NCBI GenBank assembly: GCA_023137195.1
Contig: JAGLPV010000005.1
Location: 1 to 63,711, forward strand
Source: Candidatus Aenigmatarchaeota archaeon
Lineage (GTDB): Archaea; EX4484-52
Direction of reading: 5' to 3'
Length of the DNA: 63,711 bases
In this document: positions 8,460-53,353 of the stretch, one piece after another
How the letters are laid out: every line of letters begins with the position of its first letter
Numbering within the stretch: the stretch's first letter is position 1
Notes under the pieces: model-generated
The model's input: only the letters and a program-made list of their open reading frames with translations
What the model was told of the DNA's origin: nothing
The model's database searches: none
Program-made: the position numbers and the translations under genes

Positions 8460-8481
8460 ATTGTATGGATTATCTCAATGC

Positions 8482-8696
8482 GACTTTTCTACATTCTTAC
8501 AAAAAATACGGAAAATTCTGTTCTTTACGCTTACGAGTATTTTCTGCATCCCTACGAAATTTACATGCAGAAAATAACCATGAAAATCGCTGGGCTTACA
8601 AGCAATACCGCGCTTTTCAAGGTGTTTCGGTGCTCACTGCGGAATTTGCTCTCCTTACAGGTTATACGGCAAATTCCTTTGTTCACTACCGAAACA
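8482..8696 (-). repeat. tRNA-trailer structured element, copy A (four GTA-N6-GTA hairpin modules)
   Basis: Starts at the base after the tRNA-Gly discriminator; near-identical to 43608-43772; hairpins at 8641-8677, 8582-8618, 8538-8576 and 8482-8518. Confidence 0.85.
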
Positions 8697-8767
8697 TGCA
8701 CTAGCCGGGAATCGAACCCGGATCGTAAGCTTGGGAAGCTTAAATTCTACCACTATACCACTAATGC
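8697..8767 (-). tRNA. tRNA-Gly(CCC)
   Basis: Acceptor GCATTAG/CTAGTGC+A, anticodon arm TAAGC-TTCCCAA-GCTTA, GGTTCGATTCC T-arm; no intron, CCA not encoded. Confidence 0.96.
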
Positions 8768-8771
8768 ACAA

Positions 8772-16961: not shown

Positions 16962-17077
16962 ATTATATCACGGCACAAAAGTAATGCAAGTAATGTGGCG
17001 CGATATACTAGCAAAATACATAAATACTATCCAAATACCAATTATATTTTTTGCATATTTATGTGTTTTGCTATAAT
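16962..17077. repeat. Composite palindromic element, short copy (116 bp)
   Basis: Ends ATTATA...TATAAT; two hairpins; shares both ends with 50680-50949. Confidence 0.8.
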
Positions 17078-22473: not shown

Positions 22474-25400
22474 ATGAAATACAAAACAGGATTTTTTAGT
22501 CTAAAAAATGCAACTTGTATCTTTGTATTTTTTACTGCTCTTTTTTTTATTAGTAACATTGTCTATGCAGTAATAGAAGTTGTTGAAAGTACAAATAGTC
22601 TGGGTTATTATTCTTCAATTGCAATAGATTCTAATGATAAGGTGCATATAAGTCATCATGATTACTCAAATGGTAATTTGCGATACTGCAACAATACAAA
22701 CGGCGGGTGGTCATGCAATGATATTGAAACAGTAGGTAATGTTGGACTATATACTTCAATTGCAATAGATTCTAATGACAAGGTGCATATAAGTCATCAA
22801 AAATATGTTCATTTGGCGAGTGAGTTGAGATACTGCACCAATGCCGGTGGCTCATGGACTTGTAGCACGGTTGATTCCTTAATTGATGTTGGACGACATT
22901 CTTCAATAGCAATAGACTCCAACGGCAAGGTGCATATAAGCCATAATTCTCATATCGCTCCAAATGCAGGTTTACGATACTGCACCAATGCCGGTGGCTC
23001 ATGGACTTGCAATGAAATAGATGCGGCTTATAGATCAGGGTACTATTCTTCAATAGCAATAGACTCCAATAATAAAGTGCATATAAGTCATCGTTATGAT
23101 GATTCAAGTGAGAAGGATTTGCGATACTGCACCAATGCTGGTGGTGGATGGTCATGCAGTACTATAGATAGTATAGGCGATGTTGGTCATTATTCTTCAA
23201 TTGCAATAGATTCTAATGATAAAGTGCATATAAGTTATTCTGATGGAGGAAACAGGGATTTAAAATACTGCAACAATCTCGGTGGTGGATTTGTATGTAG
23301 TGCTGTTGAAACTATAAATAGTGTTGGACGCTCTTCTTCAATAGCAATAGATTCTGAGAATAATGTGCATATAAGCCATAGTGATTCCACAAATAGTGAT
23401 TTGCGATACTGCAGTACAACGGATTATTCTACGTGGAACTGTGAAATTATACATGATTTGACTAGCTATGATTTTGGTGTTTATGGCGGTCGCGGCATAG
23501 CAATAAAAAAAGGCAGGATTGTTGATTCAACCTCCTTTTCAAACGATATTCACCTTTCGTATATGGATGATGCATCTTGGGATTTATACTACGCCAAACT
23601 CGTAAATTATGCTTATTCTTTTTATGTATCTGACTGTTCTGTCCTGAGTGAATCAGGCACATATTATTTGACTCAAAATATACTTGGTTCCTCAACTGAT
23701 CATTGTATAGACATAACTGCAAATAATGTAATTCTTGATTGCCAGGGACATACAATTGAAGGAGATGATGTAGCAGATTACGGAATTTATATACACAGAA
23801 CTTTCTCAGAAACAACAAACATAACCCTAAAAAATTGTGTGCTTACGCACTGGGATACAGCAAATGTTTATTTATATCATGCAAACGATAATAATTTGGA
23901 AAATCTAAATTCCACTTCATCTCCGGATAATGGCTTCCATATCTACTATTCAAATTCCAACAATCTTACAAACATCACAGCGAATTCTAATGTTCGTGGT
24001 ATATATATGGAGTATTCAGACTCCAATAATATCACCAACTCCACAGCTAATTCCAATAATGTCGGCTTCTATTTTGTCCATTCAAATTTCAATACTGCTA
24101 AAAACAACACAGCGAATTCCTGTTTTGAATCCGGTTTCTATATTTCTGATTCAGACTCCAATATTATTACCCGCTCCACAGCCACTTCCAATACTCAACA
24201 TGGTTTCTCTTTTTTCTCCTCTTCTTCAAATAATCTAATGGATTTTACTGCAAATTCCAATAATGAATATGGAATTCAAATATCCTACGATTCAGACAAC
24301 AATATAATTGCAGATTCATTAATATATAATAATACTGAGGGGGGACTTTTTTTAGACAAATGGGGCTTAAACACACCTGATGAGAATAAGATATACAACA
24401 ACTTATTCAACAACTCATTGAAGAACATTGATGTAGATGGAGGAATGTCAAATGTTAATTATTTAAATACGACAAAACAAACAGGGCTTAATATATTTGA
24501 TTCAAATAACCCTTATATTGGCGGCAATTATTACACAGATTTAACAGGAACTGGGTTTTCTGAGACCTGCGCAGATTTAAATACTGATGGATTCTGTGAC
24601 AACAAGCGTATTTTAACAGCAATAGGGAATTCTGTGGCAGAGGATCATCTTCCTTTAAGCAATAAATATACTACTGCTTTATTCATTATAACTTCAAACA
24701 CTCCGTTAAATGAAACAACATCTTCCGACAATACTCCAAATTTTGATTTTGCGACCACAGGAAGTAAAAATTATTATTCCTGCGAGTTGTTTATTGATAA
24801 TATTGGTTTTGGAATAAATGATTCTGTTTTAAACAACACACCCACAACAATCACAGCAAATCCAACACTTATAGATGGAACTTACGATTGGTACATAAAC
24901 TGCTCTTTTGGAGGTGTTACAAACCAGTCAGAAATCAGGGAAATAACAATAACTGCACCTACTCCGTGCACAGATGAATACGACTGCAATCTTTGCCAGA
25001 AATGCATTTTAAATACTTGCACAGACCAATCAAGCAGCGAAGACCTAAAAAATGAATGCCCTAATTACTGCGATGGTTCAGGTTCATGCACTCCGCTGGG
25101 AGCCGGAGATTGCGGCGTAACGCCAGACGGGAAAAACATCAGCATTGCCAGCAAATACAATATTTCCGGACTTTTCAAATGCGAAAAAATAAACTTAAGC
25201 GAGTATTACTCTGACTGTACGGGCAGTGAAACAACAATATACTGGTGGAACGGAACCAACTGGAAGAAAAAGATACCTATTGGCTGCGAATGCAACTTAA
25301 ACACAGAATGCCAAAGTAGATTCTGTTATTATGGAGTTTGCAATGAGCCAATAAATACTTATCCAACAGTCTTATTTATAAACAGGACAATAACTGCTCC

Positions 25401-43356: not shown

Positions 43357-43527
43357 ATGGCAGGCAAATTTTTAAAAATAAAATGCACAAAATGCAAAAA
43401 CGAACAGACTATCTTTGAGGAAGCCACAGAAACAGTAAATTGTCTCGTATGTGGAGCTTTATTGGCATCTCCTACGGGCGGAAAGGCAAAATTGGAGAAT
43501 GTAAAGATACTTTCTGTATTGGATTAA
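43357..43527 (+). CDS. rps27e: 30S ribosomal protein S27e (56 aa, not in the ORF track)
   Basis: [20 protein letters not shown]...VNCLVCG..LA.PTGGKAK. Confidence 0.93.
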
Positions 43528-43534
43528 TTTAAGG

Positions 43535-43607
43535 GGGATGGTAGCTCAGTTGGCAGAGCGCTGGACTGAAGATCCAGGTGTCGCGTGTTCAAGTCACGCC
43601 CATCCCA
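43535..43607 (+). tRNA. tRNA-Phe(GAA)
   Basis: Acceptor GGGATGG/CCATCCC+A, anticodon arm CTGGA-CTGAAGA-TCCAG, TTCAAGT T-loop; no intron. Confidence 0.96.
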
Positions 43608-43772
43608 TGTTTCGGTAGTGAACAAAGGAATTTGCCCCTTAAGAGCAAATTCCGCAGTGAGCACCGAAACACCTTGAAAAGCGCGGTATTTAGCGTAAGC
43701 CCAGCGATTTTCATGGTGTTTTTCTGCACGTAATTTTCGTAAGACTGCAGAAAAATGTCGTAAGCGTAAGAA
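43608..43772 (+). repeat. tRNA-trailer structured element, copy B
   Basis: Starts at the base after the discriminator; same sequence as copy A apart from loop indel/substitutions and compensatory stem changes. Confidence 0.85.
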
Positions 43773-43795
43773 AACGAATCCTCGATATTTATTAT

Positions 43796-44407
43796 TCAAT
43801 CTACATCCATTCCCTTCAAATCAGAAATTAATAATTCAATATTATTCTCTTTATCATCATAATAAATTGTATTTATTCCCATTTTAGAAGGAATCTCTAA
43901 ATTTTTTTTGGAATTATCAATAAACACAATCTCCGATGGATTAAGATTAAATGAATTTAAAGCTGTCTCGAAAATAATAAATTCTGTTTTTAAACTATGA
44001 ACTTTTGAGGAAATAATTATTGAATCAAAAATTAAATCCAGGTTAAACTCTTTTTCTAAAACATTAAATCTTTCTATAGGATTATCCGTTATAATTCCAG
44101 TTTTATATCCTCTACTTCTCAAATATTTAACCAAATCAAACATCGGACTATTTTTTGGTGTACTTAGAAAAGCTTCTTCCAATAACTTATTATCAATATT
44201 ATTATTAATTAAATTATTAATTTTAGGTAGAACATCTGAATATTTCTTATATCCTAATAATAAATCTAATTTATGGTTTTTAAAAGAGTCAATAAGTAAA
44301 TTGTAATCAATACTTGTATTTTCACTTATATACTCACATGTTTGAGCAGTACCACTATTATTTAATGTTAAGACTCCATCAAAATCAAAAAAAATTGCTT
44401 TAATCAT
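43796..44407 (-). CDS. HAD-superfamily hydrolase
   Basis: FDFDGVL, ITDN, K, FIDN...N motifs; very AT-rich. Confidence 0.88.
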   Translation of the reverse strand: MIKAIFFDFDGVLTLNNSGTAQTCEYISENTSIDYNLLIDSFKNHKLDLLLGYKKYSDVLPKINNLINNNIDNKLLEEAFLSTPKNSPMFDLVKYLRSRGYKTGIITDNPIERFNVLEKEFNLDLIFDSIIISSKVHSLKTEFIIFETALNSFNLNPSEIVFIDNSKKNLEIPSKMGINTIYYDDKENNIELLISDLKGMDVD

Positions 44408-50330: not shown

Positions 50331-50702
50331 ATGAAAATAACAATCAACAACAAGGAAATAGACAATATTATTTCAATGAAGAGTATATTTCAACTTACAA
50401 AAGGACTGATGTTCAAAAAAAGCGGCAGAGCTCTACTTGTATTTCCACTTAATGCAAAGCACTCCATCTGGATGGCTTGCATGAAATATTCACTGGATTT
50501 GATTTTCATTGATGAAAACTATAAAATTGTTGATATTTTTGAAGATGTCAAACCATTGACATTAAATCCAAAAACATGGAAAACATATATCCCTAAACAA
50601 AAATGCAGGTATGTACTTGAAGTTGAATCCGGTTTAATCAAAAAATATGATTTGAAAACAGGAATTTTAGTTAAGTTCAATTATATCACGGCACAAAAGT
50701 AA
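50331..50702 (+). CDS. DUF192 family protein; last six codons and stop supplied by the palindromic element
   Basis: KGLMF, IWM..M...LD.IFID, YVLEV..G. Confidence 0.88.
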   Translation: MKITINNKEIDNIISMKSIFQLTKGLMFKKSGRALLVFPLNAKHSIWMACMKYSLDLIFIDENYKIVDIFEDVKPLTLNPKTWKTYIPKQKCRYVLEVESGLIKKYDLKTGILVKFNYITAQK

Positions 50703-50949
50703 GGCAAGTAATGTGGCGTGATATAATCTCAAACGCAATTATATTACCCGTTATGCTAATTGCGTCTTCGAATATATTCACCCGCTCTTTGCGGTCGAAT
50801 ATACTAGCAAAATACATAAATGCTATCTAAATACCGATTATATTTTTGTATTATTTTCTGCTGTGAATAAAGTATAAGCAGAAAATAAGCTTAAAAGTAG
50901 TATTTTGCGTAGGGAAACTTTTATGATTATTTATGTGTTTTGCTATAAA
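50680..50949. repeat. Composite palindromic element, long copy (270 bp) with two nested inserts
   Basis: Same outer modules as 16962-17077, plus a 78-bp and a 76-bp two-hairpin insert. Confidence 0.8.
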
Positions 50950-53075: not shown

Positions 53076-53124
53076 ATTAAATAATCGTGATTAAATATAT
53101 AAATATGTATTTATTTTCCACTTA

Positions 53125-53353
53125 TATAGAAATTATGTAATTGGCGTATAATGATTTCTATACATTAAAAGTGATATTAATTGTAAGGCTCTTTTATTGT
53201 ATAGAAATTATGTAATTTGCGTATAATGATTTCTATACATTAAAAGTAGTATTAATTGTAAGGCTCTTTTATTGTTTTTTAATTGTTGTGCAAATTGAAG
53301 GGAAACGATTACAAAACATTAAAAGTAGTATTAATTGTAAGGCTCTTTTATTG
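53125..53353. repeat. Tandem array of palindromic modules X-Y-X-Y-Z-Y overlapping the trpS 3' end
   Basis: X 38 bp (53125, 53200); Y 37 bp (53163, 53238, 53317); Z 42 bp (53275). Confidence 0.9.

Follow-up and report, generated by a model that had tools for sequence, protein, structure and literature searches.

What is the sequence that begins at the very base after the tRNA-Phe(GAA) gene and recurs, in slightly altered form, behind tRNA-Gly(CCC)? Both loci lie in a 63,711-nt stretch of Candidatus Aenigmatarchaeota DNA that was analyzed as a whole (hereafter the window), and an earlier note, made from the letters of this stretch, had proposed that the differences between the two copies preserve a structure and not a reading frame. 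The genes, copies and modules concerned are as follows.

43535-43607, forward strand: tRNA-Phe(GAA) gene, found by ARAGORN and by Rfam (RF00005, 70.3 bits), with discriminator A43607.
43608-43773, forward strand: element copy B, 166 nt (U1, P1, P2, P3 and tail), identified from sequence and by covariance model R1 (197.9 bits), with a fold z-score of -5.4.
43609-43670, forward strand: P1 of copy B, a long irregular hairpin with outer stem GTTTCGGT/ACCGAAAC, inner stem GGAATTTGC/GCAAATTCC and a 9-nt loop.
Within P1 of copy B, forward strand: internal region AGTGAAC-AAA / GC-AGTGAGC, with a possible tandem G.A/A.G.
43671-43717, forward strand: P2 of copy B, ACCTTGAAAAGCGCGG...CCAGCGATTTTCATGGT, near-invariant in sequence, with conserved U.U and G.A mismatches.
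43718-43756, forward strand: P3 of copy B, GTTTTTCTGCA / TGCAGAAAAAT, with the 17-nt loop CGTAATTTTCGTAAGAC.
43757-43773, forward strand: conserved tail of copy B, GTCGTAAGCGTAAGAAA; in alignments, homology between copies stops about here.
8697-8767, reverse strand: tRNA-Gly(CCC) gene as delimited by Rfam (8696-8768 by ARAGORN).
8521-8696, reverse strand: element copy A, 176 nt, directly after tRNA-Gly(CCC) (R1, 207 bits).
8624-8695, reverse strand: P1 of copy A, with a 19-nt loop.
8577-8623, reverse strand: P2 of copy A.
8538-8576, reverse strand: P3 of copy A.
8521-8537, reverse strand: tail of copy A.
8482-8518, reverse strand: a decayed module beyond the downstream end of copy A, recognized from sequence and alignment as an additional, degenerate P3-like hairpin.

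Copy B starts at the base right after A43607, and the two copies are 86% identical, their similarity beginning one base past each tRNA discriminator. At tRNA-Gly(CCC), the ends given by ARAGORN lie one base further out on each side than those given by Rfam; the Rfam ends agree with the acceptor stem GCATTAG/CTAGTGC plus A, and U1 of copy A is therefore position 8696. Each copy consists of three consecutive hairpins with no linker between them, followed by the tail: P1 is long and irregular, P2 is nearly invariant, and P3 is a palindrome of a T-run and an A-run. The predicted folding energies of the two copies were -57.8 and -59.1 kcal/mol, and against dinucleotide shuffles the folds scored z = -5.4 for copy B and -3.6 for copy A. 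Neither a K-turn nor a bulge-helix-bulge (BHB) motif was accepted in P1, where the bulge geometry is unsuitable: the tandem G.A is possible, but there is no 3-nt bulge. Upstream of tRNA-Phe, a 56-aa zinc-ribbon ORF (CxxC...CxxC; 43357-43527, forward strand) that resembles ribosomal protein S27e ends 7 nt before the tRNA, with which it may be co-transcribed.

Comparison of copies A and B over 176 aligned columns identified 21 substitutions and one 10-nt loop indel. As had been described in the earlier note, both P1 stems (GTTTCGGT/ACCGAAAC and GGAATTTGC/GCAAATTCC) are the same in the two copies, the apical loop of P1 has 19 nt in A (CGTATAACCTGTAAGGAGA) and 9 nt in B (CCCTTAAGA), leaving a gap of 10 columns, and P3 changes from TATTTTCTGCA/TGCAGAAAATA in A to GTTTTTCTGCA/TGCAGAAAAAT in B, that is, from T-A to G.T and from A-T to T-A. 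Substitutions are depleted in the stems: 17 of 84 unpaired columns had changed compared with 4 of 92 paired columns (Fisher p = 6.5e-4). The four paired-column substitutions are exactly those in the two P3 pairs, which remain paired; the 10 indel columns all fall in unpaired sequence, and not a single pair is broken in either copy.

The window's genome (G000; 1.42 Mb in 57 contigs, about 85% complete) contains about 19 full copies plus fragments, as found with BLAST and nhmmer from sequence only. An intact copy beginning at the base after the discriminator is carried by 17 of its 37 tRNA genes, with decayed remnants at two or three further tRNAs (Ser-TGA, Cys and perhaps Lys); six of the 17 copy-bearing genes, namely five with introns and tRNA-Gly(GCC) on contig C7, were missed or called short by ARAGORN at its default settings. 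Several contigs end within a copy, and the repeat thus breaks the assembly. Covariance model R1 was then searched in congeners and in 50 other archaeal genomes. There were 11 matches in congener G001 and 21 in G003, these too directly abutting tRNA 3′ ends, and none in a third congener, G002; the 50 other genomes yielded two weak single hits and, in another genus belonging to the same class (hereafter the second genus), a divergent version with 6–12 matches in each of four genomes, and nothing else. Of the 13 genera in the class, 11 lack the family. A pattern scan of public genome contigs returned mostly single chance hits in bacteria together with true hits in Aenigmatarchaeota-type MAGs; the true copies in the public scans lay in MAGs of this lineage only, one of them labelled Candidatus Aenigmatarchaeota. 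Public viral contigs gave chance hits only, and public metagenome contigs added one true copy, which came from the sample that had also yielded G003.

These additional copies allowed the proposed selection on a folded strand to be assessed by covariation, and the support was strong. For the 16 copies of the window's genome that had been found by sequence, a MAFFT alignment gave an RNAalifold consensus of 46 pairs, in which 97.7% of the cells were standard pairs and 23 of the 46 pairs had changed on both sides. Across a set of 37 copies, drawn from three genomes of the genus, in an alignment fitted to the covariance model and hence biased towards structure, 95.8% of the pair cells were paired and 28 of the 46 pairs displayed compensatory changes, values reached in none of 500 shuffles. 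When the partners were slid by 1–3 columns as a control, 37–51% of the cells paired among the 16 copies, and 37–53% across the 16- and 37-copy sets. The 26 copies of the second genus were 92.3% paired, with 32 pairs changed on both sides. By module, both-sided changes were present in 10 of the 12 outer-helix pairs and 4 of the 9 inner-helix pairs of P1 (37 copies), while P2, the best-conserved module between the two genera, displayed compensatory changes in divergent copies only. The outer stem of P1 exists in at least 13 distinct versions, all of them complementary (for example GTTTCGGT/ACCGAAAC, TAAAGGC/GACCTTTA, TAAAAAG/CTTTTTA, AATTGGAT/ATCCAATT and TATTAAC/GTTAATA), and each of the P3 variants CTGCA/TGCAG, CGTT/AACG and CTGTA/TACAG is complementary as well. 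The further copies thus clearly do not break stems as often as loops, and evolution preserves the three-hairpin fold of one strand of the element, its top strand. An all-against-all scan of column covariation, aimed at pseudoknots, was dominated by noise. An identical GTTTCGGT at six different tRNAs led us to reject an IBS/EBS-like scheme in which the 5′ strand of P1 would be the host's original trailer, paired with an internal guide.

The two window copies overlap antisense ORFs of 91 aa (43524-43799) and 79 aa (8465-8704), and the antisense strand is poor in stops, with some open frame in 23 of the 37 copies. That these ORFs encode a small protein can nonetheless be dismissed almost entirely. 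As the earlier note had pointed out, the 10-nt indel in the P1 loop puts the antisense ORFs of A and B out of frame with each other, and its wider claim that no reading frame is conserved was borne out over the 37 copies: element lengths modulo 3 are split 14/12/11, the open frame is not the same one from copy to copy, and in 14 copies both strands lack an open frame. The ORFs moreover extend into the antisense of the tRNAs. With no frame conserved between copies, a protein-coding gene was rejected. The element is an undescribed, non-coding repeat family of about 170 bases that stands behind about half of the tRNA genes of this small DPANN archaeon; we found no published description of it in the literature.

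Which strand folds could be judged from wobble pairs and from folding energies. In predicted pairs of the top strand, G.U/U.G outnumbered A.C/C.A by 49 to 21 in this genus and by 50 to 7 in the second genus, and in comparisons that require no alignment, the top strand had the lower minimum free energy in 29 of 37 copies of this genus (mean difference -3.3 kcal/mol) and in 24 of 26 copies of the second. For this genome, the earlier proposal that the tRNA-sense strand is the one that folds was therefore upheld. Copies of the second genus that lie antisense to the adjacent tRNA still favor their own top strand (G.U:A.C 19:1; 10 of 10 more stable on top), from which we concluded that the folding strand belongs to the element and not to tRNA transcription: the general rule is that the element's top strand folds, and "tRNA-sense" is a local coincidence of orientation. 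These figures are consistent with the folded molecule being RNA. G.T wobbles form in single-stranded DNA too, and RNA is for this reason not proven to be the folding molecule.

Alternatively, the fold might matter in single-stranded DNA, the element being a non-autonomous relative of the hairpin-dependent ssDNA transposons (PATEs derived from IS200/IS605, or REP/RAYT-like elements) that is cut and pasted as a single strand beside tRNA genes in cloverleaf DNA form. In keeping with such an origin, the strand preference persists when a copy is antisense to its tRNA, and under DNA energy parameters the top strand is still favored in 23 of 26 copies of the second genus; copies sit 0–1 nt past the acceptor stem on either DNA strand and also right after other helix ends; and the strand-specific, structurally constrained hairpins are accompanied, as in IS200/IS605 and its PATEs, by neither target-site duplications (TSD) nor terminal inverted repeats (TIR). 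At the element flanks, no duplication was visible between the tRNA N73 on one side and the variable sequence on the other, and TGTTTCGGTAG... at one end is no inverted repeat of ...GTAAGCGTAAGAAA at the other, which does not agree with a DDE-type MITE. We nevertheless hold this origin to be rather doubtful. The Y1/HUH transposase family PF01797, which includes RAYT, had no match in six of the seven carriers (G000, G001, G014, G019, G022 and G040, as incomplete MAGs), and the seventh, G003, has only a 56-residue fragment with a stop; with no full Y1 transposase and no correlation between such genes and the presence of the element, a Y1/RAYT enzyme was rejected as the mobilizer. P1 and P3 are also unlike each other, whereas the two ends of IS200/IS605 elements resemble each other, and no conserved target tetranucleotide precedes the element, its flank being the variable N73. 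Finally, 5S rRNA genes also end in a helix, yet their flanks in six genomes carried no copy, a result that likewise led us to reject a generic target of the kind "any RNA gene ending in a helix."

The copies are anchored base-exactly to tRNA acceptor-stem ends and to helix ends of their own. In this genus, every tRNA-linked copy runs in the sense of its tRNA and directly abuts the discriminator. The second genus has about eight copies that abut tRNA 3′ ends in sense and about ten that abut tRNA 5′ ends on the opposite strand, the order at the 5′ ends being the complement of N1, then 0–1 nt, then the element; one tRNA of that genus (locus L093) has the element on both sides. The layout can be written tRNA-(P1-P2)n-P3-tail. 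Most G000 copies have a single P1-P2 unit (n = 1), G003 and G001 have copies with two, and the second genus, with its arrays of units of about 105 nt, reaches three or more. Second units in G003 and G001 begin directly after ...GATTTTCATGGTA, the 3′ end of the preceding P2 helix, and other small hairpin modules have been inserted into copies precisely at helix ends. In three G003 copies (L064, L065 and L070), a two-hairpin module of about 85 nt (TCTGCAAATATTTCC...GACGCAAAATAC) sits at the exact P1/P2 junction, again a helix end. In the copy after tRNA-Val in G000 (C26:206-296, L013), the internal loop of P1 has received a 78-nt foreign hairpin module with a 5-bp AACAA duplication on its flanks, a small repeat of another kind for which the element was the landing site.

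The family is patchy among close relatives, its copies decay, and orthologous tRNA loci carry different sub-types. The tRNA-Phe site of G002 is empty, the tRNA being followed by TTAATATATATTTTT... and by tRNA-Asn 41 nt on, while the G003 tRNA-Phe copy has a P1 (TTAAAAGTGG...) and a P3 (of the CGTT type) unlike those of the window copy; at tRNA-Gly(CCC) of G003, just P3 and the tail are left. Some sub-types are specific to a genome, such as CTGTA/TACAG in three G001 copies and P1 stems of the TTATTAAC type in four G003 copies plus one variant. After tRNA-Ser(GGA) in G000 (C2:74144-74173), an older copy survives as its first 24 nt (TTAAAAAGGAGTGAACAAAGGAAT), behind which lies a complete copy belonging to another sub-type; this is a nested or replaced copy. 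No pair of filled and empty loci close enough to fix both boundaries of the element was found.

Some further sequence features touch on the family or on repeats in the window. In the second genus (L081-L100), the apical loop of P1 has a conserved GCUCGC/GCUCAC motif that is not present in this genus; it is complementary to GYGARC of the 5′ (often also the 3′) strand of the internal loop, with six of six pairs in 15 of 26 copies, and could form a pseudoknot or other alternative pairing, or else the three stretches could be repeats of a single protein site. On contig C43 of G000, an ORF truncated by the contig end (3-548, reverse strand) has a ...GYSRDHRPDKKQ... motif, which we take to recall DDE transposases of the IS1634/IS4 type; it lies 45 nt from a 5′-truncated copy at 594-694 (L017). 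The window itself contains tandem repeats of 141–147 nt (22581-23413) and of 66–69 nt (23932-24265), 60–80% identical, which are probably repeated domains of a large coding gene. It also contains a non-coding 75-nt tandem triplet (53122-53350) and a dispersed non-coding repeat pair of 88–91% identity (16962-17060 with 50680-50856), both unrelated in sequence to the tRNA-linked element.

We next consider what the element does behind the tRNA genes of this genome. All tRNA-linked copies here are in tRNA sense with no intervening terminator, and they are therefore probably transcribed as tRNA 3′ trailers, in which case a cut by RNase Z exactly at the junction would leave a structured RNA starting at U1. 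An intact RNase Z gene is present in all seven element-bearing genomes (and was found in 41 of the 42 genomes searched); in G000 (C9:534-1427) and in congener G001 (C56:719-1615), it adjoins tRNA-Leu(TAG) and its element copy. Half of the second-genus copies run antisense to the adjacent tRNA, so the top strand cannot in general become single-stranded through co-transcription with the tRNA.

Were the element mainly a transcription terminator, or an RNA-stabilizing module, for tRNA genes and their convergent neighbors, the T-run of P3 would be its working part. P3 takes the form T5-8 CTGCA ... TGCAG A5, giving oligo-T on both strands, and copy B separates tRNA-Phe from a convergent gene whose end is at 43796. 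This explanation is improbable. The first run of five or more Ts lies at most 11 nt from the P2/P3 boundary in 10 of 17 copies, in P1 in three and in the P3 loop in one, and three copies, copy A among them, have none; an oligo-T terminator at P3 is thus not a consistent feature, and this inconsistency means that the 3′ end of the transcript is not predictable. P1, P2 and the base-exact junction would also be left unexplained, and a scan for bacterial-type promoters and terminators was uninformative, with no relevant terminator.

The trailer could instead belong to a host gene family of dicistronic tRNA-sRNA units, in which tRNA promoters would express a functional small RNA, made up of P1-P2 and optionally P3, that is released by RNase Z and used in protein binding or as a scaffold, its genes being non-mobile and homogenized by gene conversion. 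A precedent exists in Nanoarchaeum equitans, where a tRNA and a C/D box sRNA are co-transcribed as a dicistron and processed by RNase Z (PMC3491384). Here too, a predicted structured RNA lies directly 3′ of the tRNA on the same strand, flush with the discriminator at which RNase Z would release it; the G.U excess is on the sense strand; and sequence conservation is very strong in P2 and in the loop motifs (CGTAA-N4-CGTAAG), as would be expected of an RNA that binds protein. Still, we judge a host gene family unlikely. The element has no match to the C box (RUGAUGA) or D box (CUGA) and none in Rfam, C/D box families included (snR58 reached 15.9 bits against a cut-off of 70). It stands, unlike the known dicistrons, after about 17 different tRNAs, is missing from congener G002 and from most genera of the class, and in the related genus occurs at tRNA 5′ ends on the other strand, half of the copies there pointing away from the tRNA. 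Decayed copies and remnants are common, and the nested and tandem copies and the foreign inserted modules resemble selfish dynamics.

An RNA that cleaves itself to make the tRNA 3′ end, like the HDV-like theta ribozymes found 3′ of phage tRNAs (PMC10879173), would occupy the same position as this conserved structured element, that is, flush with the tRNA 3′ end. The likeness is one of position only, and we consider a ribozyme very improbable. In the window, only the two tRNAs reached the Rfam 15 gathering score; in E-value mode on 43590-43810, the best matches were miRNA models (14–22 bits against cut-offs of 45–176), and no ribozyme family appeared up to E = 10. The element is 166–176 nt long and made of three hairpins in a row, unlike the nested double pseudoknot of the HDV-like fold; half of the tRNAs do without it; and in the second genus, copies lie at tRNA 5′ ends on the other strand. 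With RNase Z intact in every carrier, cleavage by the RNA itself is not required, and a ribozyme that replaces RNase Z was rejected as unnecessary.

On balance, we lean towards the reading that the sequence behind tRNA-Phe belongs to a modular, non-coding hairpin-array repeat, present in many copies, that resides at tRNA acceptor-stem ends, spreads in a manner directed to helix ends, and forms here a tRNA trailer cut by RNase Z. Its spread or re-copying within genomes would depend on a process that recognizes a folded helix end, either a tRNA acceptor stem or the element's own P2, and that would need the element's own hairpins; no enzyme for it was found, and this, with PF01797 missing from six of the seven carriers and neither TSD nor TIR visible, speaks against spreading; the MAGs are 57–86% complete. 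Transposition could also be mimicked by concerted evolution, through gene conversion between tRNA flanks. A more specific version, which we put forward tentatively and as less probable, is that a gene-less element finds tRNA genes by shape: the element or its enzyme would recognize the folded acceptor-stem end on either strand and set the hairpin array 0–1 nt beyond it, with the element's own hairpins, and not sequence alone, being required. Recognition by shape would differ from the sequence-specific integration of archaeal viruses and plasmids at tRNA genes and from all described families of prokaryotic repeats.

Among bacterial structured intergenic repeats, BOX of the pneumococcus, built as boxA-(boxB)n-boxC, and REP/BIME offer the closest parallels in organization. 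Like them, the element is gene-less, multi-copy, strongly folded, and modular with variable internal units, can be transcribed with neighboring genes, and has a mobilizing enzyme that is trans-acting or not known; its (P1-P2)n-P3-tail resembles BOX in layout, with a folded head, variable internal units and a tail, without being homologous. It has no sequence relation to either, is archaeal, and is placed base-exactly at tRNA acceptor-stem ends and not scattered between genes; unlike REP/BIME, it was accompanied by no RAYT or Y1 gene in the PF01797 search of carriers. Transposition has also been discussed for tRNA introns of Thermoproteales (PMC4090602, PMC4033280), another case of a short related sequence spreading over many archaeal tRNA genes by a mechanism tied to tRNA structure. 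Those introns lie inside the tRNA and are bounded by a bulge-helix-bulge, whereas the position of the element is external to the mature tRNA, with no BHB motif seen at its junction. The element thus belongs to none of these groups: not to the tRNA-sRNA dicistrons, BOX/REP, theta ribozymes or Thermoproteales tRNA introns.

Whether the element acts as RNA or as DNA, about 60 copies from two genera provide a ready covariance model for a family absent from Rfam, and the repeat explains many contig breaks in these MAGs. Its natural base-exact junctions with tRNA ends are usable with RNase Z, RNase P and candidate nucleases. If the folded molecule is RNA, about half of the tRNA transcription units of these DPANN archaea would yield a structured RNA that is highly expressed and undescribed; if the family is a DNA element, it would represent structure-guided targeting of tRNA genes without any described enzyme.
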